Positions 4,210-36,002 of a stretch of DNA of 64,000 nucleotides are shown one piece after another (within the stretch, counting starts at the first letter, position 1; the number at the start of each line of letters is the position of its first letter). Made by a program: the position numbers and the translations under genes. The notes beneath the pieces are model-generated. The model was not told where the DNA came from, did not search any database, and saw nothing but the letters and a program-made list of their open reading frames with translations. This DNA is from Cyanophora paradoxa CCMP329 (taxonomy: Eukaryota > Plantae > Glaucophyta), in contig QPMI01000416.1 in assembly GCA_004431415.1 (NCBI GenBank), positions 62,001 to 126,000 on the forward strand, in the 5' to 3' direction.

Positions 4210-4762
4210 ATGAGTATCACGAATCTCCCCTTTATCACTCGGGAAACCTTGTATTTGGATGACGGTTTCGAGCTCAGCAGTAACATTACCGCTTCCAATG
4301 TGACCATATCTTCAAACCTTGTGGTAAAAGACTTTCTATTAAACCAGAGCAACCTTGAATATATCGATATCACCAGCAATCTCCCTTTTACCTATGGCAC
4401 TGATAACTCAGCCCTCGTTATCTATCATGGGGGCGCACCTGTTGCATTCTTTGGCAGCAATTTCCCCACTGTGCGAACCTTCCAGCACGAAATCAATAAA
4501 GCCCGCCCCATCCCACTGACAGCTGTCGTCGAATGGGATCCTGTTAAATATTCGCAGAGCATCACAAGCAATATCACCCTCACTCGACCGCATTTAATTG
4601 ATGTCATGGGGGTCGACCTTGTAAAGGAGTTTTATAGTGAGCGATTCACAAGAAACGAGCGAGATGTAGCCCAGGATCTCGAAATCTCGGGTTTATCAAT
4701 TGCTACCGCAGCAAACACGGCAGGGCTCGCTGTTTTAACAGGGGCTATCACCATCACTGATG
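4210..4762 (+). pseudogene. 5' part of a fibre-like virion gene split by the inner element (continues at 31023)
   Basis: SN-rich beta repeats; frame ...AITITD joins AIMYLSRDLVPLLD at 31023 once the element and one TSD copy are removed. Confidence 0.85.
4757..4762 (+). repeat. Left target-site duplication CTGATG
   Basis: Identical CTGATG at 31017-31022, directly outside the right TIR. Confidence 0.95.
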
Positions 4763-4935
4763 ACACATAGGGATACCCCTGATCCAAGCCCTCCGGCCTT
4801 CGGCCTACAGGCTTGGATCAGGGGTATCCCTATGTGTGCGCGTTTCAGGTACTAGGGTAGTAATCATTTATTTCAGGTCTTAGGGTATTAATCATGTCTT
4901 TTTGGCACCAGTATGTTGGCCGCCTCTGGGGTATT
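4763..4935 (+). repeat. Left TIR of inner element, with terminal hairpin 4763-4837
   Basis: Reverse complement of 30844-31016 with about 3 mismatches; perfect 28-bp arms at 4763-4790 and 4810-4837. Confidence 0.95.
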
Positions 4936-7109: not shown

Positions 7110-10100
7110 TTATACTGTGACATTTTTAATTTGGTCTATTTGACTTTGGAGATTTTCACATGTTTGTGTTAAATCTTTGCATTTCTTAGATAACTCTTTA
7201 ACGGCTTCTATGAGAACTGGAATTAAACCCGTGTATTCGAGAGAAAGGTAACCATCGTCTTTTTTAACATTAACTACCTCTGGTATTACCTTTTGAACAT
7301 CTTGTGCAATTAAACCTAATCTTGTTCCGTCTTTTTCACTTCCAATTCGTTTAAAACTTACTCCTTCTAATTTTTCAATCGCTGAAAGAGCGCCGGTTAT
7401 CTTTTTAATATCTGTTTTATATCTTATGTCACTTCCTTGTGTTAAATACCCTCCTATCCACATCCAACCACCATGATACATGTAACAAATATCAGTATCT
7501 TGCTCATTTCGGAATACAAGGGGAATATCTCCCCTTCCTTTCAAATATGTAGAAGTATTATTACCGAAATGGATACGATTGTATCCATCACTGGAATTAA
7601 ACCAAGTCCCCACATCTCCTGTTAAGATATTTGGTTTGCTATAAACGTTATTCCAATGAATATAGCCGGTGTGACCACCATAACTATTTCCTACCCATAT
7701 TTTCATGTAACTTATACCCATAATGTGAACTCTTCCGATCTTTGGTCTAATTCGAATTGTGAGAAATCGATTACCAAGATGTATCGGAACATTATTTACA
7801 CCACTGTGGTTACCATCAGGCGATGTGGCGTATGGTTGATAACTATTCACTGATGTAATAAAAACTTCATTCCCTTGTCTATTAACTCCCCAAATTTCAA
7901 AAAGTCGTGAGCTTACCCAAGGTAAATAGGTTAAAAATGCTGTTCCTGTGTGATATCCTTCTGGAATATCGAAGTCTATCCAAGCGGTAGAAGTTTGATC
8001 ATCCGTTTGATTATTATGAACATATGAACCATAATTATAATGTGGATCCCATGCTGCACTCCACGCCCATGTCCAATCGCCATAAGAACATCTATTAAAT
8101 TCAATACCTCCTTTTGTTTTATCTGCTGTGTGAAACTTTGGAACAGCATTACCATTTATTTGAAGATCTGTTGTAGCATTAATAGTGGGTGCTGTAATAG
8201 TGTTTTTCACCCAAAAGTTACCATTGTTATAAGACTTTAATATTGCTCCATCTGCTGAGTCTCTGAATTCAATTGAAACACCACCACTATTTCCATAACC
8301 TCGAATATATGTGCAATCACCATTTCCAAACCAAATTCGCGGAACAGTGTCGGTTGATTTTAACCATGTATTTGTTGGCCATGTCGCTGTTTGTGGAAGG
8401 TCTGCGGCTGTTATTAAAGCGGGACGACTATAAATATTATCCCAACTTATCAAACCATTCGCTGGTGCTGTTCTCCCTACTTCTTTTGTCCATCCAAGCA
8501 TTCCAATGTGAATTCGTCCTTTTTTTGCGAAAATTCCAATATGTGAGAAATTCCCACAAAATACGGATGTCCATAATAAACTCGAATGCCAAGCTGTGTC
8601 GGCTGTGTTTTGAACATTTTGATACGTATTAACTCTCATAATATAATTCCATCGACCATTGCGATATCCGTAAATATCGAAATATCGCCCATTCGTCCAA
8701 CATAAATATTGAATGTGACATGTTTTCATTCCTGCTGGAACCACACACTGCATGTAGCCACTGCCACTTTCATCATCTGTTTGGTTGCAATAAAAACCCT
8801 CTACTGGGTTATCTGTTGTGGGTTTCCATGCTGTTGTCCAATTTCCCACAAAATCAACACCTGTGCTATTCCAACCACTCACCACATCAAAATCGGAATA
8901 TTTGCCGACAGGATTAAAAGCGATATTATCATAATGAATTAATCCAACATCATTATCGGTTGCTCTTTGTCTACTCCAACCAAATACACCCGTAAAATAA
9001 ATGCGACCTTTCACACCTTTTACCACAATCTTTTTATAGAAATCACAGTTTATAGAAGTATAGATAATAGCGTTATAGGTTCCATCTTGAATTCCACTAT
9101 CTTGTATTGCTTGATAGTGATTAACACGTTTTAGGAAATGCTGATGTCCATTAACAGTTTCACCGTAAATGTCGAAATATCTACAATTATGCCAATTCAA
9201 AAGTTGAATATAAAACGATTTCATACCCTCTGGTATTGCCCAACGCATCCAACAACCCGTAACATCTGCATCATTCTCAGGTGTGGTGTAACATCCTGTT
9301 TGTCCTGTTCTATGTCCTGTCCAATTGACAGTCCAATTATTCGCGCTTCTATCTGTCGAAACCACATCTAATTGGTCGAAATCGTAACCTTTTGGTATTG
9401 TGGTTCCGCCAATTTGTAAAGTGGTAGCATTCACAGTTCCTGTTACAGTTCCACCTGTTAGAGGTAGATAATTAGCAAGTGCCGCCGTTAAATCGGTATC
9501 TGTAACAAAATCTGTAACAGCTAATTGTAATTCTGTATTTGTAACATAATCTTTGTTTTCTAAATAATCATCTGTAACAACACCGGAAAGGGTTGTATTG
9601 TGTAAGTTTTTCGCCGCCATTCTCTGATTGACTTCTAAGGCGCCACCTGTTGTCGTTTTGATCCACGCCATCTCACACTTTCCGTGATCATCTGTGGGTT
9701 GTCCTGCAACAGGAAGATAGTTTACAACTTTCTCCCTTGTGAATACTATCTTAGGTCTTGCTCCATCATATGCGCTTTGATCTGTTACGTTAATTTGAAT
9801 AGCTGCTGAAAAATCCGCTACTTGTCCTGTTTCACCCGGGTGATAATTCGTGACATAGATACTGGGGAAAGTATCATTAATTCCTACATTAAAATCGCCA
9901 CTATACACTCCATTTACGATTGGATCCCTGGGTAATCTTACTGCAAGAGTTCCCACCATCGGTGTGCCTGTTTCACCTGTAAATGAACCATTGAGACTAA
10001 CATAATGATCATTCAAAAATAGCCTTTCAGGTGTATTAATTGATTGGTAAAGTGTGACTCCATTAAAAACGTTTCCGATTGCATTCAATTGGGCAAAAAC

Positions 10101-13100
10101 TGGCTGTTCGTCTATTTCGCTCCATGGGTGCCTGTGGTTGCTATTTGTAATCTCTGAATAATCATGAGTGTGTGGATCGGGTGGGAAGGTTAACGGAGGA
10201 TTTGTGATATGCTCCCATAAATGAGTATGGGCGAAATCTGTGATTTGCGATTTTGTGTGAGTATGGTCAAAATCTGTGATTTGCGATTTTGTGTGAGTAT
10301 GGTCAAAATCTGTAATATCTGCTTTTGTGTGTTTTTGTTTTGCTAACCAATCTAAAACAACATTCGATGTTGGATGATGTGGTAGAGTTGCATTTTTGGT
10401 AACTGTGAGATTTTCAATAAATATATTGCTCGAATTAATTTTAAGATCTTCATTATTCAATATGGGCTGCGTATTTGGAAATCCATACAATAATTGTATA
10501 TAATATCTAACCGCGTTCTTTTCTTCAATAGATAACGCACGATTGAAAACGATAATTTCGGCAAGATCTCCATTAGCAACAGAAGAACCAAATGATGCAA
10601 AATCAGAAGGTGGAAGAAAATCACCCGATGATGTTCCAATATCAATACCACCCATTCCTACGACAATTTGCTCTGAGGAAACAGTGAAATCCCAATAATT
10701 CCACGAATTATATATATATGATGCATCGAATAATGGAGGAGTTGCATTTTCTACATCGTTTTGAATTTGAAGTGAAACCCCAAACTTTTGATTTTTACAA
10801 CCATATCCAATCCAATTTTGATAAGAACTATCCCTTATATTCAACATATAAGAAGGATTTGTTGTATTGATCCTACCTATAAAGAATACTGTAAGACCTG
10901 ATGACCAATCTATTGAAACACTACTCTTATAAGCCAAGTTCAATTCTTTCCCAATCGAAATTTGATTGTTCAGGGTTGCATTCAAATAATAATAAACACT
11001 TTCCCACTTCGAATTATTTGTAATGTATGGTATCTGTGTAGTAACTCTGTTATATAACTGACCTTCGAAATATATCAACTCACCATGTTGACCTGATGCT
11101 TTCCATGCAAATATACAATTTGGAATAATTGGGGCTGGATCAATGACAGTAGTAACAGCATAGTAAGGTCTATAAAGTATTTGTATAGTATTTTGTGTTC
11201 CAATTGTTATATTTCGATACACTGTAAGATTACTTGTGTAAATATCATCTGCCCATAGGTTACTTGCCCATAGGTTACTTGTCCAAATGTTACTTGCTGA
11301 AATGTTACTGGTGTAAATGTTACTTGTGACTGTAAGGTTTGTATCATTTTTAATCACGAATAAAGAAAGAATATTCGTTAGTTCTCCTTCGTCAATATAT
11401 CCTTGATCTTCTAAATAATCTTCTGTTACCACTCTCGATATATTTTCGTTGTGAATGTTTTTTGCAGCCATTCTTTGATTGGCTTCCAGAACCCCACCAT
11501 AATCTGTTTTAATCCATGCAAGCTCTGCCCTCCCATAGTTATCATTTGCAGTTCCCACTATGGGAATGTAGGAGTATTTATCTCGACTGAAAACTATCAT
11601 TGGTCTTGATCCATCCAGACTGCTCACATCTGCAACATGAACCTGTATAGCAGAGTTGTAATTTTGGTAGGTTGCTGGGTCTGTTGGGACTCTGAATGTA
11701 TCTGTGGGAATGTCAGCCTCCATGTAGCTTGACACAAAGATATTTGGTATGGTTGCTCCTGGTTCAGGTGGGTTTTCAAAAGAGCCTGGTAATGTCCGAA
11801 TATGAAGTGGTCCTCTCATGGCTGAATTTGCAAGTGACCCATCCACATTGACATAGTGTTCATTCAAAAAGATCCTTTCAGGGACATTGCATGTCTGGTA
11901 AAGAGAAACTCCCATTAGAGGTTCAACTTTTGAAAATTCTGGTTGGTCATTAATCTCATCCCAAGTGTGTTCATGTTTGCTTGGTGGAAATTCTTCTGGT
12001 ATTCCATCAATATCACCCCAATCATGCCTGTGATCCTCTGGTGGATACTTTTGAGGTTTGCCTAAGATCTCATCCCAATCATGATTGTGATCCTCTGGGG
12101 GATACTTTGCAGGTTTATTATTAATTTGTTCATAATCAGGAAAGAACTCCCAGATCTCAGGTCGAAATCCATCTGGTAGTAATTCCTCATGGGGTTCATA
12201 AGGTTGCTCATAATCAACAGCTGGTGGATCATGCCCATCTGGCAAATACTCCTCATCAGGTTCATAGTTCTGCTCATACTCAAACTCTTGTGGATCTAAG
12301 CCATCTGGTAGTATCTCCTCCTCATTGGGGTCAAATTGATCATACTCATACTCTTGTGGGTCAAAACCATCTGGTAAATACTCTTCCTCATCTGGAACGA
12401 ATTGATATTCTTCAAGCTCTAATATATCGATTTCAGGAGGTAAATACTGCTCATCTATTTGCTTTCTTGGTTCAATTATAGGTTTATTGCGAACTTGCTC
12501 CCAACTTACAATATGCTGCCCAAAGGCTACATCTTCAGTTGCTGTGTATTCTCTTCCAGGTTGCTTCTTTGGTGTTAAATCGGGTGGTCCATTGGGAAAT
12601 GGAATAGGGAATGGGACTGTTGGTCCATTGGGACCATAATGCTCAATTATTTCCCTTAGAGTTTTCTCACTTACAAGCTTCTCACCATTTGCATACACAT
12701 TGCTGCCATGGATATTTCGCCATTGCCTGGTTCGAATTCCAAGGTCTTTCACATTGCTATACAAAGGCAAAAGGTGCCTATCCATTTCGACTAAATCAGG
12801 ATGTAAATGGATTGCTACTGGCTGACTGGGGCTACTGTTGATTGTAATTGATGGCTTTTTTTGATGGACATCTTTTGGAGTAAAGAACCCAAAAGGCTCA
12901 TTCCTTGCAAAGTCATATGTAATATCCTTGGGGTAGACATCATTAGTTGAACAGACTTGATTCGTGTTCTGGAAATGGCCCACTTGTAATACTTGGGGAA
13001 CCTCTGTTTTTGTGGTGCTGCCCTCATTATAAATTCTTAAACCCGTGTTCTGTTTGCCCTGCTCATCTTGTACATTGAAAATCAAACGGCCACTATCACA

Positions 13101-13412
13101 CCTTGATGGTATGTCTGGGTGAGTGCCACTGGTTTTTAGTTTCCTAGGTCTCCTTCTTGTTGCTTTGATCTCTGCTACTTGGTTGGCTTTCACATTACCC
13201 AAACTAAAAGCAACACTGACATCTTCTTTATTTGGATCAGTTTGATTCACAGATAAAGCATGCTCCCTTGATTGAGTCTTTGAAGAACCGTCAGAGCTGT
13301 GGTCGATTGATATTGAACCTTTAACTTTTATATTATCAAAGTTCACATGCTTTGTGCTGCTGGAATTATCATCTTGAATTGTTTCCAGATTAGGGGGGTA
13401 ATTAAAGCTCAT
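7110..13412 (-). CDS. Giant modular fibre/spike protein with C-terminal peptidase S74 intramolecular chaperone
   Basis: 2100 aa; SDIRYKTDI...GLIAQDVQKVIPEVV...EYTGLIPVLIEAVKEL; HxH tail-fibre repeats; LamG-like GDLAEIIVFNRAL; several internal duplications. Confidence 0.85.
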   Translation of the reverse strand: MSFNYPPNLETIQDDNSSSTKHVNFDNIKVKGSISIDHSSDGSSKTQSREHALSVNQTDPNKEDVSVAFSLGNVKANQVAEIKATRRRPRKLKTSGTHPDIPSRCDSGRLIFNVQDEQGKQNTGLRIYNEGSTTKTEVPQVLQVGHFQNTNQVCSTNDVYPKDITYDFARNEPFGFFTPKDVHQKKPSITINSSPSQPVAIHLHPDLVEMDRHLLPLYSNVKDLGIRTRQWRNIHGSNVYANGEKLVSEKTLREIIEHYGPNGPTVPFPIPFPNGPPDLTPKKQPGREYTATEDVAFGQHIVSWEQVRNKPIIEPRKQIDEQYLPPEIDILELEEYQFVPDEEEYLPDGFDPQEYEYDQFDPNEEEILPDGLDPQEFEYEQNYEPDEEYLPDGHDPPAVDYEQPYEPHEELLPDGFRPEIWEFFPDYEQINNKPAKYPPEDHNHDWDEILGKPQKYPPEDHRHDWGDIDGIPEEFPPSKHEHTWDEINDQPEFSKVEPLMGVSLYQTCNVPERIFLNEHYVNVDGSLANSAMRGPLHIRTLPGSFENPPEPGATIPNIFVSSYMEADIPTDTFRVPTDPATYQNYNSAIQVHVADVSSLDGSRPMIVFSRDKYSYIPIVGTANDNYGRAELAWIKTDYGGVLEANQRMAAKNIHNENISRVVTEDYLEDQGYIDEGELTNILSLFVIKNDTNLTVTSNIYTSNISASNIWTSNLWASNLWADDIYTSNLTVYRNITIGTQNTIQILYRPYYAVTTVIDPAPIIPNCIFAWKASGQHGELIYFEGQLYNRVTTQIPYITNNSKWESVYYYLNATLNNQISIGKELNLAYKSSVSIDWSSGLTVFFIGRINTTNPSYMLNIRDSSYQNWIGYGCKNQKFGVSLQIQNDVENATPPLFDASYIYNSWNYWDFTVSSEQIVVGMGGIDIGTSSGDFLPPSDFASFGSSVANGDLAEIIVFNRALSIEEKNAVRYYIQLLYGFPNTQPILNNEDLKINSSNIFIENLTVTKNATLPHHPTSNVVLDWLAKQKHTKADITDFDHTHTKSQITDFDHTHTKSQITDFAHTHLWEHITNPPLTFPPDPHTHDYSEITNSNHRHPWSEIDEQPVFAQLNAIGNVFNGVTLYQSINTPERLFLNDHYVSLNGSFTGETGTPMVGTLAVRLPRDPIVNGVYSGDFNVGINDTFPSIYVTNYHPGETGQVADFSAAIQINVTDQSAYDGARPKIVFTREKVVNYLPVAGQPTDDHGKCEMAWIKTTTGGALEVNQRMAAKNLHNTTLSGVVTDDYLENKDYVTNTELQLAVTDFVTDTDLTAALANYLPLTGGTVTGTVNATTLQIGGTTIPKGYDFDQLDVVSTDRSANNWTVNWTGHRTGQTGCYTTPENDADVTGCWMRWAIPEGMKSFYIQLLNWHNCRYFDIYGETVNGHQHFLKRVNHYQAIQDSGIQDGTYNAIIYTSINCDFYKKIVVKGVKGRIYFTGVFGWSRQRATDNDVGLIHYDNIAFNPVGKYSDFDVVSGWNSTGVDFVGNWTTAWKPTTDNPVEGFYCNQTDDESGSGYMQCVVPAGMKTCHIQYLCWTNGRYFDIYGYRNGRWNYIMRVNTYQNVQNTADTAWHSSLLWTSVFCGNFSHIGIFAKKGRIHIGMLGWTKEVGRTAPANGLISWDNIYSRPALITAADLPQTATWPTNTWLKSTDTVPRIWFGNGDCTYIRGYGNSGGVSIEFRDSADGAILKSYNNGNFWVKNTITAPTINATTDLQINGNAVPKFHTADKTKGGIEFNRCSYGDWTWAWSAAWDPHYNYGSYVHNNQTDDQTSTAWIDFDIPEGYHTGTAFLTYLPWVSSRLFEIWGVNRQGNEVFITSVNSYQPYATSPDGNHSGVNNVPIHLGNRFLTIRIRPKIGRVHIMGISYMKIWVGNSYGGHTGYIHWNNVYSKPNILTGDVGTWFNSSDGYNRIHFGNNTSTYLKGRGDIPLVFRNEQDTDICYMYHGGWMWIGGYLTQGSDIRYKTDIKKITGALSAIEKLEGVSFKRIGSEKDGTRLGLIAQDVQKVIPEVVNVKKDDGYLSLEYTGLIPVLIEAVKELSKKCKDLTQTCENLQSQIDQIKNVTV

Positions 13413-13455: not shown

Positions 13456-15010
13456 ATGCCTCTCAAGGTCGTTTTAGCATTGTCAGGAGGCGGGGCAAGG
13501 GGCATTATCATTACCAGACTGCTCAAAGAAATCGAAAATCGAACTGGCAGGCGAATCATTGACCTTGTGGATCTTGTGAGTGGAACTTCCACGGGTGGGA
13601 TCATTGCCATTGGGTTGAACATCAGGCATCCAGATAGGGCAGGCGAACCCAAACTCACAGCCAGTGATTTACATAATATATACCTCACTCAGCTGCCCTT
13701 GATTTTCGCGAATCCTCGAAATATAATCGAAAATGCCCTTTTTAACACCAAGTATGATGTGGCTCCTTTGGAAAGCGCAATCTATTCTGTTACTGGCGAA
13801 TCTCTCATTCAAGATTCCTTAAAGGACATTGTGATTACTTCGTTTGATACTCAGTACATGAAACCTATATTTATCACAAATGATAACAACTACAACTTTC
13901 TGCCCTGTAAAATAGCAGCAAGGCTACCTCTGCTGCTCCCACCTACTTTTCTCCTGTGAGTATAGTTGATTTTAATCGAGGGGTAACTGCTTGCCTTATT
14001 GATGGTGCTATTTCAGGAAACAATAACCCAAGTGTGTGTGGCTATAGCCATGCGAGGAAGATTTACAGTGATGATGATGACATTATAGTTATAAGCATCT
14101 CTTGTGGTGAGGTAGACCCATATTTAGAGTCTGATTATTTCGGCTATGGTTATGAGACTGTGAATAGTTGGGGCATTCTCTCATGGATTGCCTCAACAGA
14201 TGGAAGCCCATTGATCAACATGCTCATGGCAGCAAGTGAGCTGTCAGCTCTTGACAAAATGGAGGAGTTGCTACCTTACAACTACGATCAGGATTATGGA
14301 GGTACTATAGGCTATCTGTTCCTCTTCCAAATCACATAGTCAAGTCCCTTGATGATACCTCTAAAATCCCCGACATGCTTGCGTTCACTGAGACATACAT
14401 AGCAGCAAACAACACCATGATTAATAAGCTTTGCGATTTGCTGGTAGCAAACTATGAATTAAAGAACCCATCAAAAGCTTACATCTCTTCCACTCTCACC
14501 CTGTCACCACCTTTGGATGCTAATTGGTACAAACTTGCTGATGATGCCTTTACTGCCTCCTCCTCTGTGATAGGTAAAGAGCCCCACATGGCTCGACCTT
14601 CATCATTTGGCTGGGAAGCTGGGGCATTTGCTCCAGAGCAGATATGGGAGACCCCCACTGAGTACCTTCAAGTTGCTTTCCCATATACGTTTGAACTCTC
14701 TTCAGTGGTTGTCTATGGGTCAGGGGACACCAATGCTTTCATAAAGACTTTCAATGTGGCTACATCAACTAATGGGGTCAACTGGTCTTTTATTCGAGCA
14801 GAAGGGCAGAACAAAACATTTGTATGTGAGAACATAAACAATGCTAATAATTCCGGCGATGTGGCTTTATTAAATGGTTACCCTCTCACCATCAAGGATG
14901 CTTTCTACGTAGGGTTCTCTTTGAGAATAAAGTATGTTCGCATTTATCCCCTTGTTTATGTCAATGCTCCCACAATGAGAGTCGATTTTACAGGTGCGTT
15001 TATTCGATAA
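13456..15010 (+). pseudogene. Patatin-like phospholipase fused to an F5/8 type C (discoidin) domain; two frameshifts
   Basis: GGGARG, GTSTG and DGA motifs; RYYRL...SLDDTS bridges 14339 to the 14375 frame; FTASS...YLQVAF...YVRIYP...MRVDF discoidin signature. Confidence 0.82.
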
Positions 15011-17026: not shown

Positions 17027-18397
17027 ATGGATATTACGTCGACCCTCCAGCGCCTTTCGTTGAAAGAAGCCCTAACAACCCCAGAGGAGGCCAAGGCCTT
17101 CTTTCTGGATAACTCCCTTATGCTTGGTCTTGAATCCAAGTCTAAGCCCGTTCTTGTTGTTGTGAACCCGAGCAATACTTTTGAAAATAATGTTGGAAAT
17201 CGCATTTCATTCAAACTCCCTCGCTACAATTTCTGTGGCAAACTCGAACTTGCCTTTGACCTTCCAGCTATCACTTTTGGTGATGCGGATCTTGTTCGGA
17301 ATGGGTACACTCGCCCAGTGGGTGCTTTGGTTCAGCGACTTGAAATTACCTATGGGTCATACACCTACCATATCCCTTCTGATTTCCTTGCTCATTTCCC
17401 TCTTGTCTATTATAGTGAGGATCAACTTGCCAAAAAGAAGCGGTCAATGGGTATGCTTCACGGCATCCCCGCCCATGGAACCAACCGACTTGGTGGTTCT
17501 TTCTTCGTCGAAATTCCTGTGCCTTGGCTAAACCACTACCTGCCTCTTGGTGCTCTGTCTGGTGAAATGGTAGTAACTGTTTGGTTCAAGGATGTAGGGA
17601 AGGGTTATGTTGAGACTTCTTATGGTGGTCGTACTCTTCCTAAGGCTGGGGACACAGCCATTGATGGGGACAAGGACGATGGGCTTGGCGTCGCACCTGC
17701 TGAATCTGTGCTGGCACATGTTGGCCAAAACATCACCACTTTCAATCTTGGTGCGCCGAGCACTGAAATTACAATTACTTCTCCTCGCCTTTACATGTAT
17801 GCTGTTAATGTGTCTGATGAGCTTTTTGCTACTGTTATTGAGAAGGTAAAGACTACTGGCATGGCTATCCCTGCTCTAGACATTGGATTTGTAGATGCTA
17901 GTGCTTTTTCTGCCAAGGGCAATGCCCAACCCAATCGAATTAACCTCTCTCAAATCTCAGGTCTCGTTTATGCTCTGCTTGTCTCGGTTCGCGATAACGC
18001 TAATGTTGACAAAGCTAATGGTTCCCACAGTGTTCTTAAGACCTACTCCAACTCCAAAGAGATCACATTCACAATTGAAATAAACGGCCAGCGACTTTAT
18101 GCCACTGAGCCAATTTCGCTCCTCAAAGGTGCTGAGCTGATTGCTGATGTCTTCAAATGCTCTAATATGGATAAGGTTGCTGATCGCTATGTTCTTTCGG
18201 GTATGAGTTTCTGTCTTGACGGTGAGAAGGCGATTCGCAATATTGCCCAGTCTGGCTATGTTGACCTGACCAATTCTTCATCTTCATTCCTCACTCTCTA
18301 CATGCCCACTGACAAGGTTATTGATGTCAATGTTCGCGCTCTCATGCACAGCTATATCATAGTGGACAAGGACGGGCTCCGAAAAATTAATCTATAA
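17027..18397 (+). CDS. Major capsid protein (PLV-type double jelly-roll), inner element
   Basis: 456-aa intact ORF aligning with 422-1870; upstream of the ATPase. Confidence 0.8.
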   Translation: MDITSTLQRLSLKEALTTPEEAKAFFLDNSLMLGLESKSKPVLVVVNPSNTFENNVGNRISFKLPRYNFCGKLELAFDLPAITFGDADLVRNGYTRPVGALVQRLEITYGSYTYHIPSDFLAHFPLVYYSEDQLAKKKRSMGMLHGIPAHGTNRLGGSFFVEIPVPWLNHYLPLGALSGEMVVTVWFKDVGKGYVETSYGGRTLPKAGDTAIDGDKDDGLGVAPAESVLAHVGQNITTFNLGAPSTEITITSPRLYMYAVNVSDELFATVIEKVKTTGMAIPALDIGFVDASAFSAKGNAQPNRINLSQISGLVYALLVSVRDNANVDKANGSHSVLKTYSNSKEITFTIEINGQRLYATEPISLLKGAELIADVFKCSNMDKVADRYVLSGMSFCLDGEKAIRNIAQSGYVDLTNSSSSFLTLYMPTDKVIDVNVRALMHSYIIVDKDGLRKINL

Positions 18398-18450: not shown

Positions 18451-19233
18451 ATGGGCGACTTGGACGAATTTAATGCTGGGGAGATGATAAATCCCCCTTT
18501 CCGCGTTTTGGCAATTGGCAAATCTGCTACTGGTAAATCAGAGGCTGTCAAGTACTGGCTCAAGCAGCTTCATGATGCCAAAAAGATTGATGTCGTTCTT
18601 GTTATCAGTGGAACTGCTTTTAACAACTTTTGGAACAATGTAGCAAGTGTTCAGCTTGGCAAATGGGATGCTCATTACATTGAAAAGGTTTTGGAAGATC
18701 GACAACAGAAAATAGAAAAGGGAGAGCCGATTAATCAACTCTTAGTTGTACTGGACGATCTAATTGATAATGACTTGGTCGATCTCACTCGCGATAAAAT
18801 AATCAACAAATTGTACTCTATGGGCAGACATTTGAAAATATCTATTATCTGTATCACACAAAAGCTAAGGAAAGTCTCATCGACCATTCGCGTCAACTCA
18901 GATTATGCTATGTTCCTAAGCGCTGCCAATAGAAAGGAGCTTGAAGCCATTGAGGAAGAATACAATATAATGCGGGACAAAGATGTTTTCTATAAAATGT
19001 TTGAAGAGTACGTTCATTCCTACCAGTTCCTAATTTGGTCATCTGCCGATTATTCTGTGAAATATTTCGTAGATAAAGCGGATTTGGTCAAAGATTTCCC
19101 ATTTCCACGGTTCCACAGGAAGCCAAAAAAGAAAGAAGACGAGCTTAAACCACCAGAGAAAGAAGAGGGGCGCAAAGAAGTGAAAAGCCAAGTTCATAGT
19201 AATAAGTTAATGCGATATAAACGCGGTCTATAA
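18451..19233 (+). CDS. A32/FtsK-like DNA packaging ATPase
   Basis: GKSATGKS (Walker A), LLVVLDD (Walker B), GRHLKISIICITQ, IRVNSDY. Confidence 0.92.
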   Translation: MGDLDEFNAGEMINPPFRVLAIGKSATGKSEAVKYWLKQLHDAKKIDVVLVISGTAFNNFWNNVASVQLGKWDAHYIEKVLEDRQQKIEKGEPINQLLVVLDDLIDNDLVDLTRDKIINKLYSMGRHLKISIICITQKLRKVSSTIRVNSDYAMFLSAANRKELEAIEEEYNIMRDKDVFYKMFEEYVHSYQFLIWSSADYSVKYFVDKADLVKDFPFPRFHRKPKKKEDELKPPEKEEGRKEVKSQVHSNKLMRYKRGL

Positions 19234-20911: not shown

Positions 20912-21247
20912 AATAATCTACTTTTAGGCAGCATAAAAATGCGAAAGGGGCGGCTCTGCGTAGAGCTTGATGAGAGCTTCACAGGAAAAAAAAGAGCGCT
21001 CAAAACGGCCAATCTGGTGCCGAGATATTCGCGTTTGAAGTTCCTTAAGTGGCTCTAATTGAAAGTTTTAGAAACATTCTTATAGAGCTCTATAAGGAAA
21101 AAGCCGCCTACTGCTGTACGGTAGGCATGCGGGCTCTACCGGTAGGACAGTAGGCAGGGCCCTACTGTCCTACCGCCGGCGGCCTGTGCCTACCGGTCTG
21201 CGGTAGACACGCGGGCTCGCCTACCACTGCGGTAGGCTGGCTCATAT

Positions 21248-21895
21248 ATATGTATATGATATATATGAAAAAAAACAAGTTTTGGTAAAAACCACAGCGC
21301 CGTGATCGCCATGACGCGGCGAGTCCGAAAAGCTATGATATATATATATATGTCATGTGACATCATAATATATCATATACATATATCATTATGGTATATA
21401 CAAGTCGCTCAAATTGAAGTCTTATAAGGTCTTATAAGAGTTGTTATATAGAATTCTTTTCTAAAATCTTATATGGTCTTATAAGATTTAATGTGCGTAC
21501 TTTAGCTGGTACGCAGGCCAGTGTGCGTACCGTAGCGCAGTACGCAAGCCACTGTGCGTACCGTAGCGCAGTACGCAAGCCAGTGTGCGTACCGTAGCGC
21601 AGTACGCAGGCCACTTTGCGTACCGTAGCGCAGTACGCAGGCCACTTTGCGTACCGTAGCGCAGTACGCAAGCCACTGTGCGTACCGTAGCGCAGTACGC
21701 AGGCCCCTGTGCGTACCGTGGCTCAGTACGCGCGAACGTACATATGTATATGATATATATGAAAAAAAAACAAGTTTTGGTAAAAACTATAGCGCCGTGA
21801 TCGCCATGACGCGGCGATTCCGGAAAGCTATGTTATATATATATGTCATGTGACATCATAATATATCATATACATATATCATTATGGTATATACA
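21248..21895. repeat. Two ~150-bp direct repeats (21248-21402, 21742-21895), each an imperfect palindrome
   Basis: TGTATATGATATATATGA...AAACAAGTTTTGGTAAAAAC...TCATAATATATCATATACA occurs twice. Confidence 0.9.
21492..21732. repeat. Tandem array of a 31-bp palindromic unit (about 7 copies plus 1 degenerate)
   Basis: TGTGCGTACCGTAGCGCAGTACGCA(A/G)GCCAC, with TGCGTAC/GTACGCA inverted inside each unit; no spacers. Confidence 0.95.
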
Positions 21896-22331: not shown

Positions 22332-22379
22332 CTTGATTCCCTTTAAACAATTATGGTGTTCTATTCTTTAAGTGGTGGG

Positions 22380-22560
22380 AGGGTGAATGGGGTGAATGGC
22401 AGGGTGAATGGGGTGAATGGCAGGGTGAATGGGGTGAACGGGTTATGTGTAAACTTTCTTAGGAAAACCCCCTCTCATGGGGATTTATACATATAACCCG
22501 TTCACCCCGTTCACCCCGTTCACCCCGTTCACCCCGTTCACCCCATTCACCCCATTCATC
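22380..22560. promoter_or_regulatory. Putative origin: inverted arrays of 9-bp GGGGTGAA(C/T) iterons around a ~55-bp spacer
   Basis: Directly downstream of the primase-helicase stop; inverted second copy at 30660-30822. Confidence 0.6.
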
Positions 22561-22621
22561 CACTTAACCACTCTTTCTTAAAAACATAAAATGCTTTTCT
22601 CAGAATATTTACTACTTTCAA

Positions 22622-25083
22622 TCAATCACTGTCACTTTCAATCCCCATCTTTGCCTTGATTCCAACATAATGCCAGAGCCTTACTTTCCCAATCTGTTTC
22701 TTAGGAATCCCATTGATCACAGTCATAGCTGTTCCAAAGGCTGTTTGGCTCATTTCTTTATCCACTCTGGAATACTCTTTGAATAGATCAGCTGCTTTGA
22801 TGACGTCACTGCTGCTGTGGGTGATTTCAAAGTTTGCCTGAAGCCATGTCAGCACTGGGTTGTTTTCAGTGATATATTCCTTGCTGGCCTCTTTGACAGA
22901 TTCAGGCACTGGGATGAAGCCCATGGCGCCCACCTCAGTGGTGTATGTGTCAATGAGCAGCCTCATGAAAGCCTGAGCATATCTCTCATCATCTCTAATT
23001 CTGCCCATCAGGCTGGGGTCTGCCTTCTTTTGGCCTTGAATGGGATTCTCTTTGAACTGGTATTCAAAATGGGACACATGGAGGCGCCTTTGGATGCCTC
23101 CATCCAACTTGGAGAGCTTTGGAATATCATTTGTCAGCAGGAAGGGAATGAATTGAGGAGTGAATGTGATGGGGTTAGCATGTAATAAACGAGCAACAAG
23201 TTTCTCACCTCCAGTGATCTCCTTGATTTTGCCCACCTGAAGCTTGTCACTGGCTTCAGGCTCATTGGAGAAGATGATCCTCACACCCTTTTTGTCAGCC
23301 AGCTCAGGCACAGGGGCGCCAGACCTTGGTTTCCCACTGACCCAGTAGGAGCTGTCAAGGGGATGGGCATAATCACCCAGAGCCTTGAGAACCAACTCTT
23401 GGAGTGTAGATTTGCCATTGGAGCCAGTGCCTGTCCAGATGTGGAAGCGCTGGTCTTTGTTGCCCTTCCCAGAGAGGGCACCTGCCAATGTCCTCACAAG
23501 GAATTTGCCAGTCTCTTGATCTTTGAATGGCTCATATACAATTTTCTTGATTTCTTCCATGACATTCCCATCAATCATAGGGGCATATGGATAGCCACAA
23601 GTCCTACTGACATACTCATCAGCTTTGGCTGGGCGAAAGACCTTATTTTGAAGGTCATAGACTCCATTGGTAAACCCAATCAGCTCCTTAGATTCATCCA
23701 TACTGGCAGCTATTTCAGTGTCAGCAAAGAGAGCCTTTGCTTCCTTGATGATGGAATCTTTGAAACCACACTTAAGGAGCTGCTTGGAAATTTCAAGGCA
23801 TTTCTTGGCATTCTCCTCATACTTTGAGCTTTCATCTGGATCAGCAGCAGCTGAACGAGTGTTTTCCATTGCCTCCTTCATAAAAAGCTTCATGACATCA
23901 GTGGAAAGCACTTTGCGCAGTGTATGGGGTTCCTTTTCAGCTCTCCACAGTCCAGTGAGCTTATTCCTGACATACCAGATGTCTTTTTGATTGGCATCAT
24001 AGCGGAATTGGTCTTTTTGTGTGTGGTACAGGACTTCAGCCACATTGTAATGACCCCCATTTGAAGCAATGGCATTTTAATGGCCTGCTTGAGGTCTCCC
24101 TTATTGGTAAACAGCTGAATATATAGATCCAGATTATCAGCTTTGAGCCAATAGACAAGAGAAGCATATGCCAATGGCTTTACTGAGCTACCTTTTTGGA
24201 AGCTCTGCCAAGCCTTGTCACACGCCTCAGCCCTATACTTGCTGCTCTGTTGGCTGAATTTGTGCCAGATGGCCAGTACTTTGTCTTCAGGCATTTTCTT
24301 GTCTTTCATAGTGCTTGTCAGGGCCAAGCCAACATTAATCCAGTCAGCATAGCCATCAGCTCGTTTTTCACTGAGTCCCATCACAAGCTTTTCCAGCTCA
24401 TCACTGGTGATGATTTCGCTGGAATACTCATTATTTTTGGGCAGCTCCTGGGCAGGCTCCTCCTTCTCTGGAAGAGTGAGCAGGGCCTCCTTGCCAGTGA
24501 GAAGCTGGACAAAGAAATCAGTGTCCTCATGGGATGTTAGCTTGGTGAACACAGTGTCCCAGCAAGGTTCCTCATAGGTGCTGCTCTTGTCAGCAAGAGC
24601 CTTCTCTTTACAGCAACCAAGGCACACAAGCGCCCTGTTGTTGTTGTAAACAGATGGATCATAGTCCTCATGAGGCTTGAGCCCAGCCCCCTCAAGGAAA
24701 ACAGGGAAATCCCTGTAGATGCCATGAAGGGTGGTACATACCATGTGGGCACTCACTTTGTAGCATGGATCCTGTGTGTCTTTTTTGATCAGCAGCCTTG
24801 ATCTGGTGGAGATGGCAATGGTGCTGATGTGGACACCAAGTGCCTTGGCCAGCTTTTCAGCCTTGGAATTGATAAGCTCAAGTCCCTCATCATCAACCTC
24901 ATCAACAGGCAGAACCTGTTCGAAATCAATGTAGAGCTTGGTGAATTTATGGCCACTCAAGTACTCAGCCATGTGCCTGTTGCCTGAAGCAATCCTCTGG
25001 AGTGCCTCAGTGACCCTGATAGTCACAGTGCTGGCTTCGCGACTGCCAATGATGCTTGTTAGGAAGGTGCCAGTGGATGTCAT
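22622..25083 (-). pseudogene. AEP primase-PriCT-2-D5/SF3 helicase, one frameshift near 24050
   Basis: KLYIDFE, SAH, DPSVY (AEP); YADWINVGLAL..WHKFSQQSSKY (PriCT-2); LIGFTNGVYDL, GTGSNGKS, NEPE, KEITGGE (D5 helicase). Confidence 0.9.
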
Positions 25084-25434: not shown

Positions 25435-26005
25435 CTATTCGGTATTTTGTGCCTCGGGCTTAATCTCATTGAGAGCGGCAAAGTCTCCATAGTGTTCAAT
25501 TGCCGCCTGATTGTAGGCATGAGCGGCTAAGGCTTCATTTTTGTAATACCCAAAGAGAGCCTTTTGTCATTAATTGTAATCTGAGCACACCATTTACCCT
25601 CTCGTTTCTTGAAAGAAACACCTTTATATTGACTGCTTGTATTGCTGCTTTTACTCCTATTCCTATTATTCTCAAAAGGATAGCATACCCTCAGATTACA
25701 CTTCCTGTTGTCCAATTTATCTCTGCTCACATGGTCGACAACCAACCCTTCTTCAGTTCATTTGTCATTATCAATCGATGAGCATACAATACCAACCATT
25801 TCCCTTCATCTCGCTTTACACTTGTCTTAGCATAACCATCCCCATCCAAACACCAGTTATATCTCATCATTGTAGGAGCATCTTCGATATCACATATCAT
25901 ATACTGGCCCCTTCCTTTGGCCCCTCCAAGTGGAACGTAGAAATATTTCATGGAGTCCACGTCGTCAAACTTGGTTTCAACAAAATCCTGATCAAAGGTT
26001 TCCAT
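25435..26005 (-). pseudogene. HNH endonuclease with AP2 domain, two frameshifts
   Basis: YFYVPLGG, AHRLI, VVDHVSRDKLDNRKCNLR, SQYKGVS, AAHAYNQAAIEHYGDFA; homologous to 33774-34484. Confidence 0.85.
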
Positions 26006-26100
26006 TTTTCGTCTACAATAGACACACAAAATAATCTTCCAAATTCTACGCGGCATTTAAAGATTATTTTCGTACCTATATATAAGTACAACCCCCAACC

Positions 26101-29100
26101 ATGCCCCGCCCCAGCCACTACCAAATTAAGGAGCTTCAGGACAAGATTCTTGGGAATCTGGCGTTCCTACTGGCCAACCACTCGATCAGTGAAAGTGAAT
26201 ATGAATCATACATAGGGCAAACCAACAAAAAGCTCAAAGGATTACAAGCACTCAATCGAGAACTATTAGGGAAAATCGACGCCCTTGATGAGACTGATCG
26301 CCTTGGCCAAATCCAAGTCGAACAGACCACCACAACTCAAGTCAGAGGAGATGAATACACAGCTCTAATTAATGAGCATCGCGCTCTAAATAATAAATAC
26401 ATTGATTTCACAATCAGAGCTCAGCACCAGATCCTGACCACCCAAGAATTTATTGACACCTACTCTGAGGAACTCCACACAAGGCTCCAAGATGCCATCA
26501 ATTCCCAGATGTCGATTAAAACTCGCTTTACATTTGTCTGTCGCTTTTCAAAAGCAAACAATTCGAGAGATTTTATTACCAAGCACATTTACAGCACCTA
26601 TGCTATCATGACAAGATCTCGAATCCTCACAAAAGAGACAGCTAAACTTGCCAAGGAATGCCAGTCGCAAATTAATGTCACAGATAGCTACAGATTAGAT
26701 AGCATCCAAGCCCTCAGGGTCATTGTTCTCTCCTTTAAGCCAATCTCAGGAGGTGCTTTTATCCCACTCCCAGAGTGGCTCAAAAATAAACGAGCCATTG
26801 TCAATGTCAACAACAAGGACAATAGATGCTTTGAGTATGCTATCCTTTCTTATATTCACAAGGACGAAGTAAATAGCCACAAGCGTAATGAGACTTCCCA
26901 ATATAGGAGGTGGTTCAAAAAAGAACTAAATTTCGAGGGCATTGACTTTCCTGTAAAGGCAGATGCTGATACTATCGATCTCTTCGAAAATCTCAATCCA
27001 GCAATCTCTGTTAATATTTACGACCCCTCTAACTCTACAGAAGAAATTAATCTACTCCACAACAGCTCCTCAAGGAACAGGAAACACCAAGTGGATCTGC
27101 TGCTAATTACAGACGCAAATGGTAACAGTCATTATACCACAATATTCAGCATGTCCAGACTCTTAGCTAAGAATGATAAGCAGCGACTCCATTTCTGTAA
27201 AACCTGTTCCAACCACTTCAAGACTGAGGAGAAGCTTCAATCCCACAATCAAAGCAAACGTTGTGTGGATTGGAAGACAAGTGCTGGAGAGACTCCAAAA
27301 CAACCCACATTCATTGAATTTGGTCTTAAACATCTCTCAAAGACTGTATTCCTCCCAGTGATTGCCTATTGCTATTTCGATTTTGAAACAGATCAAGAAG
27401 GTATGTTCAAGATCAAATCAATCTCACTGACAGCTCTTCATAATAATAGAGTAGTACTCACTAAAACCCACTCCAGCATCTACGAGCTTTTATCTACACT
27501 CGACAAAGCAGCCCCAGAGCTATTTAAAGCCCTATTTACCAACGTCCCAATGTCACTGACCAAAGAGCAGAAACGTACCCATTACCTTGCTAAAACCTGC
27601 TACATCTGTGAGGGTACGTTTTCCCAAGACAATTATAAAGTCCGCGATCATGACCATCAAACAGGCGATTTTGTAGGCTCAGCCTGTCGCAAATGTAATC
27701 TTCACAGACGCACCAGCAATCTCACCAAGATTCCCATAGTGACCAATGATCTGTCCCTATCTGGAACGCAGATATTCAAGGCAGTCGCCTTAAATCCCGA
27801 AAAAAGGGTGGAAGTCCTCGCGAAATCGTTTGACAACTACATGTCGATCACATGGGGGTGCTTTAAGTTCATTGACATCAAAAACTTTATTGATTATGGT
27901 GTCCAGAACGTGGAAGGATTAATGGAAAAGTTCCAGCTATTTCGCCAGAAATCCCACAAGACCTATGGAATGGATGCTGCCCACTATGTCTCAAGTCCTG
28001 GCCTTTCGTGGGACAGCATGCTATCGATCACCAAGCCCAAAATCGAACTCCTCTCCAACCTTGATATGTACAACATGATTGAAGGCATGATCAGGGGAGG
28101 CCTTTCGATTATGAATCATAAATATGCCAGAGCTGAAAATGACAGCCACATTATCTATTTGGACGCCAATAACCTATATGGATATGCCCTGTCCCAAAAG
28201 CTACCCCTGTCTAATTTCCAATGGCACCCAGAACCCTCAAATTACGACCTGTCATCAGCAGGTGGTGCTGTACTGGAGGTGGACATTCATTATCCCCAGC
28301 ACCTCCATGAACTCCACAAAGAACTGCCTCTTGTCATCAGGAGAACAGAAGATGGGCTACAAGCAGCCTGCCAAGACATTTCCAACTACGTAATATCAAA
28401 ACCATTGCTCCAATTCATGGTAGCACAAGGCTTAAAGGTCACCAAAATCCACAGGGTGCTGACATTTACTCAGGCTGCTTTCATGAAGCCCTACGTCAAA
28501 TCTAATGCCCAAAACCGCAGAGAAGCCGCCTCCAAACCCGAAAAGGACTTCTTTAAAATCATGAACAACAGCCTTTTCGGCAAAACCATTGAGAAAGTGA
28601 GGGAAGGTCGAATGTCAAGATTGCCACCAACGAAAAGCAATTTATGAAATATGCCAGATCCCCACTTCTCAAAGCCGAAACCAGGCTTAGTGATTCAGCA
28701 GTAGCCTTCGAAATGCTACAGAAAGACGTCAAGCTGGACAAGCCCATAGCAATTGGGGCAGTTGTTTTAGATCTTGCCAAGCTACGCCTATTTGATTATT
28801 ATTATAGCACCATCAAGCGCAAGTGGCCAGACTGTAAGCTACTATTTACTGATACGGATTCTTTCTGCCTTTCAATAAATTCCACAACCATCCAACAGGA
28901 TCTACAAGACATTGACACACACCCCACAGAGCTTGGGAAGTTCAAAAATGAGTTTGAGGGCAGAACCATTACAGAATATGCTGGTGTGAGGCCGAAATGC
29001 TACAGCATTAAAACAGATGATGAGGAAATCAAAAAGCTGGCTGGTGTTTGTAAGGAGACCATTCAAACAGATCTGTCTTTCCAAGATTATAAAGACCATG

Positions 29101-29195
29101 TGCTCCACCAAAAACCCAAGCAAATCGAAATGACTGTCCAAAAGAAGCTTGAAAATGAGACCTTCAATGTGAAGATGTCAAAGATTGCTTTCTAA
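26101..29195 (+). pseudogene. polB: Protein-primed family B DNA polymerase (Polinton type), frameshift near 28610
   Basis: YLDANNLYG, KIMNNSLFGKT, LLFTDTDS; Endo VII-like CYIC..DHDH..ACRKCN insert; DNRCF...SHY vOTU-like region. Confidence 0.92.
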
Positions 29196-29206
29196 TCTCA
29201 ATATAG

Positions 29207-30577
29207 ATGTCATCAAAGATCGTACGCAGACAAACAGAATATGATGTGAGTGTACTCCCTATCCCAATCCCTCAAGAAGAGAGAGGGGGGCGCATACAGA
29301 AAAAGAGTGACCTCAAAGCATTAGTTCCAGCAGACATCCCAACAGCAATTGCTGTGCCCCACTTGGATCCCTTAGCAAGGACATTCTATGACACCAAGGT
29401 AGGATTTAAAGGCCTTGCTTCATTGGCCAAAGAGCTTCCAGATGTGCCAAGAAAGACAATCCGTAGATTCTATGATGCCCAAGAAATCAACCAAATAAAT
29501 AAACCCCTCCCATCAGCCAAGAAGACTGCCTATATCCCCATAAGACAGCCACTCGATACATTCGCTATTGATTTAGTCTTCTTTCCCTCATACAGCAAAC
29601 AGAATCAAGGCTACAACACGTTCCTCACAGCTGTAGAAAACACCACCAGACTGGGCTTTATTATTCCAATGAGGGGAAAGACAGCAGAAAGCACATTGAA
29701 CGCATTTAAGGAGCTTGAGCAACAAGTCCCTCGTCCAATTGTGAAGATACAAAGTGATGCTGGGAGCGAATTCCTGAACAAGGTATTTAAAGACCATTTA
29801 GAAACCCAGATGATTGAGCACCAAGTTTCGCAGGTTGGAGATCACAATAGCCAAGGCCGAATAGAGGCCTTTAATCGCACAATAAAGAAGCTAATTAACT
29901 CGTATTGTATAGCGAATAATACTGTAAAGTTTTTCGACAAGCTCCAAGATTTTGCCTACAACTACAATAATACCATCCACTCAGCAACAGGGATGAAACC
30001 AGCAGAGACCACAGAGGTACATGTTCCCCTCATACTCGCAAAAGAAAACGAGAAATTCATGAAGTCAATTGAATATCTAAAGGACTATCCAGCGGGAACC
30101 CACGTGAGAACTAAAATAGAGAAGGGTCCATTCGCCAAGCAGGGCAATAATTGGAGCCGCGAAATATTTACAATAGAAGGAGTGGAGGGGTTCAAGTTTA
30201 GATTGAGGGACATTGCCGGAAAAATGATTGATCGACTTTATGCCCACTACGAATTACAGAAAGTGGAAGCCGTGGAGTTTCTGGAAGCCCCATCAATAAA
30301 TGTCATTGAAGAGGCAAAGAAAGAGGCCAGAACAGAGCGACTGTTGGCCAGAGAGGGGATTGAGAGGGCTCCAAATGTGCCAGATAAACCATTATTGGAG
30401 GACAGAGCAGGGAAGAAGAAGAAACAGGGGAGAGAGTTGGAGAGATTGAGGGTGGCGGGAACAGAGAGATTAGCAGGGGGAGCAGAGGCAGTAAGGTGGT
30501 ATAGAGATTTCTCGAATTCAAAGGAGACCTATGAAGCTCCAGCAATTTCCACGAGATCAAGGAGGAGGGCAGGATGA
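29207..30577 (+). CDS. Retroviral-type (rve, DDE) integrase of Polinton type
   Basis: AIDLVF, QSDAGSEF, RIEAFNRTIK, YNNTIHSATGMKP, NWSREIFTI; consistent with a 6-bp TSD. Confidence 0.95.
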   Translation: MSSKIVRRQTEYDVSVLPIPIPQEERGGRIQKKSDLKALVPADIPTAIAVPHLDPLARTFYDTKVGFKGLASLAKELPDVPRKTIRRFYDAQEINQINKPLPSAKKTAYIPIRQPLDTFAIDLVFFPSYSKQNQGYNTFLTAVENTTRLGFIIPMRGKTAESTLNAFKELEQQVPRPIVKIQSDAGSEFLNKVFKDHLETQMIEHQVSQVGDHNSQGRIEAFNRTIKKLINSYCIANNTVKFFDKLQDFAYNYNNTIHSATGMKPAETTEVHVPLILAKENEKFMKSIEYLKDYPAGTHVRTKIEKGPFAKQGNNWSREIFTIEGVEGFKFRLRDIAGKMIDRLYAHYELQKVEAVEFLEAPSINVIEEAKKEARTERLLAREGIERAPNVPDKPLLEDRAGKKKKQGRELERLRVAGTERLAGGAEAVRWYRDFSNSKETYEAPAISTRSRRRAG

Positions 30578-30596
30578 GACATCTGTAAAGGTTGTT

Positions 30597-30822
30597 AAGG
30601 ATTGTTAAGATTGTTAAGATTGTAAAGGGTGTAAAGGGTGTAAAGGGTGTAAAGGGTGTAAGGGTGAACGGGGTGAACTGGGTGAACGGGGTGAACGGGG
30701 TGAACTGGGTGAACGGGGTGAACGGGGTGAACGGGGTGAACGGGTTGTTTGTATAAATTCCCGTGAGAAGGCATTTTTCCTAAGAAAATATACAAACAAC
30801 CCGTTCACCCCATTCACCCTGC
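30597..30822. repeat. Graded 9-bp tandem repeats plus inverted copy of the 22380-22560 iteron cassette
   Basis: AGATTGTTA > AGGGTGTAA > GGGGTGAAC units, then spacer and GTTCACCCC. Confidence 0.9.
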
Positions 30823-30843
30823 TGATGCCAAACTCATGTGTTC

Positions 30844-31016
30844 AATACCCCAGAGGGGGCCAACATACTGGTGCCCAAAAGACATGATTAATACCCTAAG
30901 ACCTGAAATAAATGCTTACTACCCTAGTACCTGAAACGCGCACACATAGGGATACCCCTGATCCAAGCCTGTAGGCCGAAGGCCGGAGGGCTTGGATCAG
31001 GGGTATCCCTATGTGT
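30844..31016 (-). repeat. Right TIR of inner element, with terminal hairpin 30942-31016
   Basis: Reverse complement of 4763-4935; followed by TSD CTGATG at 31017-31022. Confidence 0.95.
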
Positions 31017-31022
31017 CTGATG

Positions 31023-33745: not shown

Positions 33746-33773
33746 CGACCACAAAAAAGAACCAGTTGCGTTT

Positions 33774-34484
33774 TCAATTGATAATGTTTAGCTTTGCTTT
33801 ATCACCAAGTAGCTCAATCGCTTTATCATTATATGCTTTTGCAGCTTCTTCTTCCGTTTTATAGTTGCCAATTCTAAGATGTTTCTTCTGAACTTGAATT
33901 CTTGATTCCCAAAGCTTGCAATCTTTTCGAAAGCTTACCCCACGATACTTAGATGTCTTTGTTTCAAACTGAATTGAAGAGTTAGCAGCGCATTGGATGT
34001 CATTAAGCCATGCATATTCGCCAAATAAAGCGATTGCTTTTGCATTGTAGTTCCAAGCCGCACATTCCTCGGTTCGATAATTTCCAAGGAAATGGCGTTT
34101 TCCGTTTACAAATATTTTAGACTCCCAGCACGCATGCTGTGAATTCCATGTTACACCTTTGAACTGAGATGTTTTATTTGTGCACCTGACTTGACGATTG
34201 AAATTGTTTTGTTGTTTTGTGGCAAGTCTGAGATTTGATTTTCTGTTATCAAACTTATTGTGATTAATATGATCAACACAAGATTTAGGATCGTCTGTGT
34301 TTATAATAAATCGATGAGCAGAGGTAAGTTTTGCAGAAATGTGAGTATAAGCATATCCACTATTATTAACAAACCAATCATATTTCATAACCCTCTCTCG
34401 ATCTTCAATGTCTATGATCATATGTTTGCCTTCTCCATGTTTCCCTCTCAAAGGGACATAGAAATAGTCAACTTCGTCTGTCAT
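33774..34484 (-). CDS. HNH endonuclease with two AP2 DNA-binding domains
   Basis: AHRFI, VDHINHNKFDNRKSNLR; SQFKGVTW..AAWNYN; SKYRGVS..AAKAYNDKA. Confidence 0.92.
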   Translation of the reverse strand: MTDEVDYFYVPLRGKHGEGKHMIIDIEDRERVMKYDWFVNNSGYAYTHISAKLTSAHRFIINTDDPKSCVDHINHNKFDNRKSNLRLATKQQNNFNRQVRCTNKTSQFKGVTWNSQHACWESKIFVNGKRHFLGNYRTEECAAWNYNAKAIALFGEYAWLNDIQCAANSSIQFETKTSKYRGVSFRKDCKLWESRIQVQKKHLRIGNYKTEEEAAKAYNDKAIELLGDKAKLNIIN

Positions 34485-34545
34485 TTGAGTTCTTTTCTGA
34501 TCGTTTTAAAAAGGCGTCATTTTTTTAAATCATTTTTTATAAAGA

Positions 34546-35981: not shown

Positions 35982-36002
35982 TAAGTAAAGAACAATCAAA
36001 AG

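Follow-up and report, generated by a model that had tools for sequence, protein, structure and literature searches.

Terminal palindromes have been described for virophages of Halocafeteria seosinensis (subtypes 1, 2, 5 and 6) and for a Polinton-like virus (PLV) of subtype 4, and the text of that preprint draws a hairpin-priming model for them, which is put forward as a proposal (bioRxiv 10.64898/2026.07.28.741278). The same text treats the replication mode of most PLVs, and the way in which PLVs with a primase-helicase complete their ends, as an open question (10.64898/2026.07.28.741278). At the Cyanophora paradoxa locus presented here, a palindrome likewise lies within the TIR of an element with an rve integrase and adjoins the TSD. 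Whereas the Halocafeteria screen had a gap limit of 10 nt, the arms of the present palindromes enclose 19 and 242 nt. Furthermore, the Halocafeteria palindromes occur preferentially with replicases other than the protein-primed family B polymerase (pPolB), whereas the inner of our two elements carries an AEP-SF3 replicase plus a pPolB; the Halocafeteria elements also belong to another capsid lineage, and their host likely to another supergroup.

An earlier note on this DNA set such fold-back ends against the simple TIRs of canonical Polintons. That they are unreported is not supported, as both the palindromes and the hairpin idea are found in the Halocafeteria preprint (10.64898/2026.07.28.741278). 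It is the only description of terminal palindromes that our literature search found, supplements being outside its scope; PMC12220804, PMC10120064 and 10.64898/2026.06.19.733378 use neither 'palindrom' nor 'hairpin' in their main texts. The novelty may be affected by Figure 6 of 10.64898/2026.10.13.758929, in which a 'palindromic repeat' is marked and a QPMI01 contig appears. What apparently is new here are loops beyond the range of a 10-nt gap screen, the retained pPolB, a design common to two nested families and a seemingly fixed orientation. Screens with a 10-nt gap limit, as published, would overlook such ends.

The linear replicons of Streptomyces provide a second comparison (PMC5449611). 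There, replication from an internal origin leaves a single-stranded 3′ overhang with terminal palindromes, fold-back-templated repair of the 3′ tip has been shown, and a terminal-protein-primed fill-in at repeated terminal bases completes the end patching by Tap/Tpg; tips of the AC-repeat type are the kind used by protein priming (PMC5449611). Streptomyces telomeres differ from the ends described here in having several short palindromes instead of one long stem, and they come with no integrase. The likeness, which includes a mechanism that we only infer for our elements, is meant as an analogy, and no homology is claimed.

Canonical Polintons and Mavericks (PMC11296320, PMC12220804) share with the inner element the TIR, a 6-bp TSD, the rve integrase, the ATPase and the capsid genes and, as far as the predicted fold and motifs of its altered enzyme show, a pPolB with TP and vOTU domains. 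Unlike them, the inner element has no protease detected among its scanned ORFs, a degenerate exonuclease, an extra AEP-SF3 replicase and palindromic tips. Parvovirus and poxvirus telomeres (PMC9415595) resemble the present ends in their fold-back terminal sequence; in contrast to those, no flop isomer was seen in the contigs and no Rep/NS1 among the ORFs compared, the element is rve-integrated and the palindrome is open on both strands. Table S6 of PMC12220804, with its columns as we interpret them, holds 156 PLVs of Cyanophora paradoxa, with rve in 85, a pPolB domain in 49, D5_N in 40, PriCT_2 in 15 and lipases in 89, and these columns give neither a tyrosine recombinase nor a protease. The gene set of the inner element matches that of these PLVs, the comparison being one of gene sets and not of element identity.

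Two nested elements and their boundaries

The window, that is, the whole 64-kb stretch of DNA analysed here, holds one element inserted in another. The inner element (4763-31016, ~26 kb) lies between two copies of CTGATG (4757-4762 on the left and 31017-31022 on the right, both on the + strand), which form a 6-bp TSD, and its fold-backs are flush with this TSD. Its TIR of 173 bp (4763-4935, + strand, and 30844-31016) is identical over the first 101 bp and has 3 mismatches deeper. The inner virus sits in a gene of the outer virus, likely a fibre or structural gene (4210-4762 and 31023 onward). Three of the four ends are visible, the outer left end lying beyond the 64-kb window. Immediately past the outer right tip at 39697, the GC content rises from 0.29 to 0.77.

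Contigs of 4 public short-read runs (of 22 listed), one of which may be the source of the window, were compared with positions 29000-39950. Among the contigs listed, the empty site, consisting of the left flank and a single TSD copy, was present in 3 of the 4 runs, and in 3 of 4 the junction from the outer arm to the host was spanned by a contig of single-locus depth. An outer end at 39699 was also considered. The junction contig of single-locus depth starts at 39669 in three of the four runs, in keeping with an end at 39697-39698. This placement follows from the behaviour of the assembler at its word length.

These boundaries bear on the suspicion that the palindromes are assembly artefacts or independent small MITEs at the ends. 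The assembly is error-prone, with many one-base differences between the window and the short-read contigs in the outer element, and among the contigs listed for the 4 runs none spans an inner tip. Against this, none of four boundary pairs showed a hairpin flanked by a TSD of its own (2-12 bp), yet a 6-bp TSD surrounds the whole inner element; two identical tips stand 26 kb apart; and the empty-site and outer-junction contigs each occur in three of the four runs. The artefact or MITE reading is thus largely refuted, and we consider it highly improbable. The palindromes therefore form the actual termini of two integrating PLVs, as the earlier note had maintained.

Several one-base insertions relative to the window were seen in short-read contigs of the outer element between 31000 and 37400, which suggests that long-read errors lie behind its broken ORFs.

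Terminal fold-backs

In the left fold-back of the inner element (4763-4837), perfect arms of 28 bp enclose a loop of 19 nt that holds a GGCC mini-stem of 4 bp, and the right fold-back (30942-31016) is its exact inverted copy. The outer right fold-back (39402-39697) has arms of 27 bp, or 29 when two extra pairs are counted, and an AT-rich loop of 242 nt. The coordinates, arm lengths and loop lengths given in the earlier note were all reproduced, and it holds for 3/3 visible ends that each carries an internal inverted copy of its own terminus. The tips read AC...GT, in contrast to the AG...CT of canonical Polintons.

To set the chance level, the longest perfect arm with a loop of up to 300 nt was determined in 20 dinucleotide shuffles of positions 1-39697. 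It reached 10-13 bp, compared with 27-28 bp at the real tips. Folding z-scores were -12.5 for the inner tip and -7.2 for the outer tip, while the outer loop by itself gave +0.7. A longer, degenerate pairing of the outer loop with the DNA further in was dismissed (score 45 vs 34 ± 6, maximum 60, in 200 shuffles). That the inner arm might present the integrase with a CA end as in retroviruses was considered too, but the end that is joined is the outer arm.

The arms of the two elements are identical at 15/27 positions, made up of the first 8 and of 7 of the remaining 19, so that 12/27 differ; BLAST between the tips of the two elements gave no similarity that stood out past the first 8 bp. Perfect arms in spite of divergence between the families, from which the earlier note had read selection, are by themselves no proof of it, because one arm may be copied from the other. 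Searches for related loci in which arm covariation would be visible found none, either among viral contigs that align with the capsid or the integrase or among metagenome contigs.

Origin-like iteron palindromes

Long palindromes are a habit of both genomes and not of their tips alone. The internal spaced palindromes of these elements have perfect arms of 20-28 bp, and one internal unit at 37553-37662 likewise has perfect 28-bp arms. In the inner element, two spaced palindromes of 9-bp iterons (22368-22570 and 30618-30825) look origin-like, a role that we assign from their form alone. Positions 22420-22569 are an 88% inverted copy of 30672-30822, in both of which the 9-bp iterons stand around a short core. 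Between the two copies, in the right-hand third of the element, lie the genes for primase-helicase, HNH-AP2, pPolB and integrase, a replication-integration module that may be exchangeable as a cassette. The text of 10.64898/2026.10.13.758929 describes repeats on either side of a replicase module.

Next to the right tip of the outer element, six spaced inverted repeats made of 8-9-bp iterons form a subterminal array (37458-39211) that by its form likewise looks origin-like. Its units lie about 280 and 430 bp apart, and judged by contig joints their number varies between copies. The inner element further has, in a non-coding region (21245-21895), a 31-bp tandem array between two 159-bp direct repeats (94%).

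Such internal repeats raise the question of whether the terminal ones have any function of their own. An ancestral end may have folded back once, been copied and been inherited without function, or the tips may simply be the outermost origin-like repeats, binding a replication protein as double-stranded DNA. The internal palindromes with their perfect 20-28-bp arms fit this account, copying from arm to arm would give perfect pairing without selection, and accidental annealing is named as an alternative in the text by the Halocafeteria authors (bioRxiv 10.64898/2026.07.28.741278). However, two families that have diverged, and whose loops are very unlike, show the same design exactly at the junction, and a search for the internal iterons inside the tip arms gave no match. 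The arms of the inner element show 0 mismatches compared with 3 in about 98 bp of TIR further in, a difference that also speaks against mere inheritance, though it is not significant by itself. Overall, an origin of the tips as functionless or origin-like by-products seems unlikely.

Gene content of the elements

Both elements are PLVs and carry genes for capsid proteins of the double jelly-roll type. The predicted model of the inner major capsid protein (17027-18397, + strand; pLDDT 66) matches the PBCV-1 and SGIV capsids with an E value of 3e-17, and the outer major capsid protein (422-1870, - strand) is 36% identical to it. The closest homologue of the inner capsid is a Cyanophora paradoxa protein with 59% identity; the capsid family is rare, as 6 of 1.84 billion proteins reach E<=0.001. 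PF04665 was found in both elements, in the inner one as an A32-type packaging ATPase (18451-19233, + strand). In addition, the inner element encodes a likely fibre protein of 2100 aa with a C-terminal Peptidase_S74 chaperone (7110-13412, - strand), and a patatin-like phospholipase, in two frames, with an F5/8 discoidin domain (13456-15010, + strand). Four ORFs are presumably minor-capsid-like by an N-terminal motif, with no family cut-off reached. No maturation cysteine protease was matched among the scanned ORFs, where a divergent one could escape detection.

The rve (retroviral-type) integrase (29207-30577, + strand) is open and has its DDE residues. The inner element thus combines the TIR, integrase and TSD that characterise PLVs, while the left end, integrase and replicase of the outer element lie beyond the window. 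An HNH-AP2 endonuclease is encoded in two frames (25530-26056, - strand). A second HNH-AP2 gene, in the outer element (33774-34484), is present at single-locus depth with multi-copy neighbours, and may be a recent insertion. The AEP primase/PriCT-2 domain and the D5-type SF3 helicase occupy two overlapping frames in the assembly (22622-25083, - strand), with their motifs present. Poxviruses likewise have a D5 primase-helicase, which they employ alongside a junction resolvase. Among 44 ORFs compared with Pfam and 31 with PHROGs, no match to HUH/Rep, NS1, A22, protelomerase or tyrosine recombinase was obtained.

A pPolB with a degenerate exonuclease

The pPolB gene (26101-29195, + strand) is spread over two overlapping frames and encodes a TP fold, a vOTU domain, an EndoVII-like insert, a degenerate exonuclease and the palm motifs. 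Its residues were compared with 35 homologues. The vOTU residues C243 and H344 as well as palm motifs A and B are retained, and motif C is located in the overlapping downstream frame. In contrast, the ExoII Asp, present in 35/35 homologues, and the ExoIII Asp, present in 33/35, have been lost; for ExoI the alignment allows no clear assignment. The spacing between ExoII and ExoIII is 48 residues, compared with a median of 158 in the 32 of 35 homologues in which it could be measured. The exonuclease domain is short by about 110 residues.

In the predicted model, residues 100-211 have the TP-type beta-alpha-beta-beta-alpha-beta topology with four strands and two helices. The model matches phi29 polymerase (E 1.4e-8) and, weakly over about 120 columns, Y-family polymerases; this second match probably belongs to the TP domain. 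According to the text of 10.1101/2024.03.18.585575, TP domains resemble Y-family polymerases and have their priming residue in the segment that links helix 2 to strand 4. The predicted priming loop of the present pPolB reads T-D-S-Y, compared with G-S-x-W in 27/27 homologues in which it could be located, and has Asp where 32/35 homologues have Ser; Thr194 and Ser196 are still in the loop. With these two residues kept and the canonical loop altered, protein priming by this enzyme may be possible, the residues neither establishing nor excluding it. When the pPolB profile was compared with sequences of solved structures, only zinc fingers were matched.

The text of 10.1101/2024.03.18.585575 describes pPolBs that have lost the exonuclease and occur with a helicase as an active arrangement. 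The pPolB and primase-helicase genes have one frameshift each in this assembly. An assembly error is plausible for both, because contigs show extra bases at several sites of the outer element (not these two); the alternative is decay. Given that a pPolB with TP fold and intact vOTU dyad is retained in the inner element, the suggestion that the fold-back stands in for protein priming is not upheld.

Copy number and loop orientation

In run X1, the contig with the inner integrase has a depth of 1734, compared with 93-111 for single-locus contigs, which suggests ~15-20 copies of the inner family, with depth as only a rough guide and no copy number in itself. By the same rough guide, both elements are multi-copy. 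In run X3 (record 31), a contig of 330 bases covers positions 39356-39684 at a depth of 513, about ten times the single-locus depth of 39-59. It is collinear with the window: starting inside the element, it passes the inner arm, crosses the entire outer loop and enters the outer arm. This contig should break at the border of arm and loop if a flop isomer were similarly abundant, we infer.

Read from the outside in, the loops of the left and right inner tips have identical orientation, an outcome expected by chance in one of two cases for a single tip pair. No flop isomer of the loop was found in the two inner tips and the one multi-copy outer contig (1 of 4 runs), contigs being prone to lose rare variants. 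In this small sample, the loop orientation appears fixed. Symmetric hairpin resolution, as in parvoviruses and poxviruses, inverts the loop half of the time and gives both flip and flop. An end of the parvovirus or poxvirus type, as the earlier note had envisaged, is not supported: no flop orientation was seen at these tips, and no HUH or tyrosine recombinase was matched among the 44 ORFs.

The same observations weigh on self-priming, by which the excised strand would fold, its 3′ end would prime synthesis of the genome and a nuclease would then resolve the closed end. In its favour, the 3′ end pairs perfectly and could be extended, the pPolB departs from the canonical priming loop, and candidate nucleases exist in the EndoVII-like insert of the pPolB, the HNH-AP2 genes and the integrase; the Halocafeteria palindromes, which accompany mainly non-pPolB replicases, point in the same direction (bioRxiv 10.64898/2026.07.28.741278). 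However, the loops seen (two inner tips and one outer contig) include no flop, neither HUH/Rep nor protelomerase nor tyrosine recombinase was matched (44 ORFs with Pfam, 31 with PHROGs), and the TP fold and vOTU dyad have been retained. Taken together, self-priming with terminal resolution is doubtful, although an asymmetric variant, in which a nick at the junction of the inner arm would keep the loop orientation, is compatible with these data.

A possible route of end completion

A linear genome copied by a primase-helicase is left with unfinished ends. We propose that the inverted copy of the last 27-28 bases acts as a fold-back telomere, by which the ends of the free linear genome would be completed and the loop would not be inverted; the chances of this reading appear to us about even. 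It is favoured because the arms are perfect at 3/3 tips, far above chance, and because families whose capsids are only 36% identical have kept the arm length and the 8-bp tip while 12/27 arm positions differ. It is further favoured because the inner element has a primase-helicase with its motifs together with origin-like iteron palindromes, and because both elements are multi-copy by contig depth. Patching is preferred over resolution because the inner tips match in orientation, the X3 contig is collinear, the TP fold and vOTU are kept, and the tip is an AC repeat. Against completion by fold-back count the similar palindromes at internal positions, the T-D-S-Y loop, and the split pPolB and primase-helicase genes.

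In the proposed scheme, the primase-helicase would begin copying at the internal iteron palindromes, and a single-stranded 3′ end would remain. This 3′ end would pair with the inner arm and so be protected, and a shortened tip could be rebuilt from the inner copy, whereby the arms would stay identical. The gap would then be filled, probably primed at the AC-repeat tip by the TP domain of the proofreading-dead pPolB, or alternatively by host repair after integration. Finally, the integrase would join the 3′ tip to host DNA. The scheme as a whole would be closer to Streptomyces end patching than to terminal resolution in parvoviruses. Among the options raised before, that of the inner copy as a template restoring the ends fits best, and end completion would be its likeliest function.

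More tentatively, and at rather lower probability, such viruses might replicate in a eukaryote as Streptomyces linear replicons do, with a primase-helicase working from internal iteron origins and a pPolB reduced to patching the ends on fold-backs of fixed orientation with loops of up to about 240 nt. Such ends could then be common among PLVs yet missed by tight palindrome screens, and the elements could represent an intermediate in a switch from protein-primed to primase-driven replication. Two multi-copy families in what is likely a cultured and sequenced alga make the choice between hairpin priming and end patching directly testable.

Beyond the outer right tip, the GC-rich host flank contains a diverged direct duplication (41002-42831 and 45140-47784), 71-88% identical in blocks.
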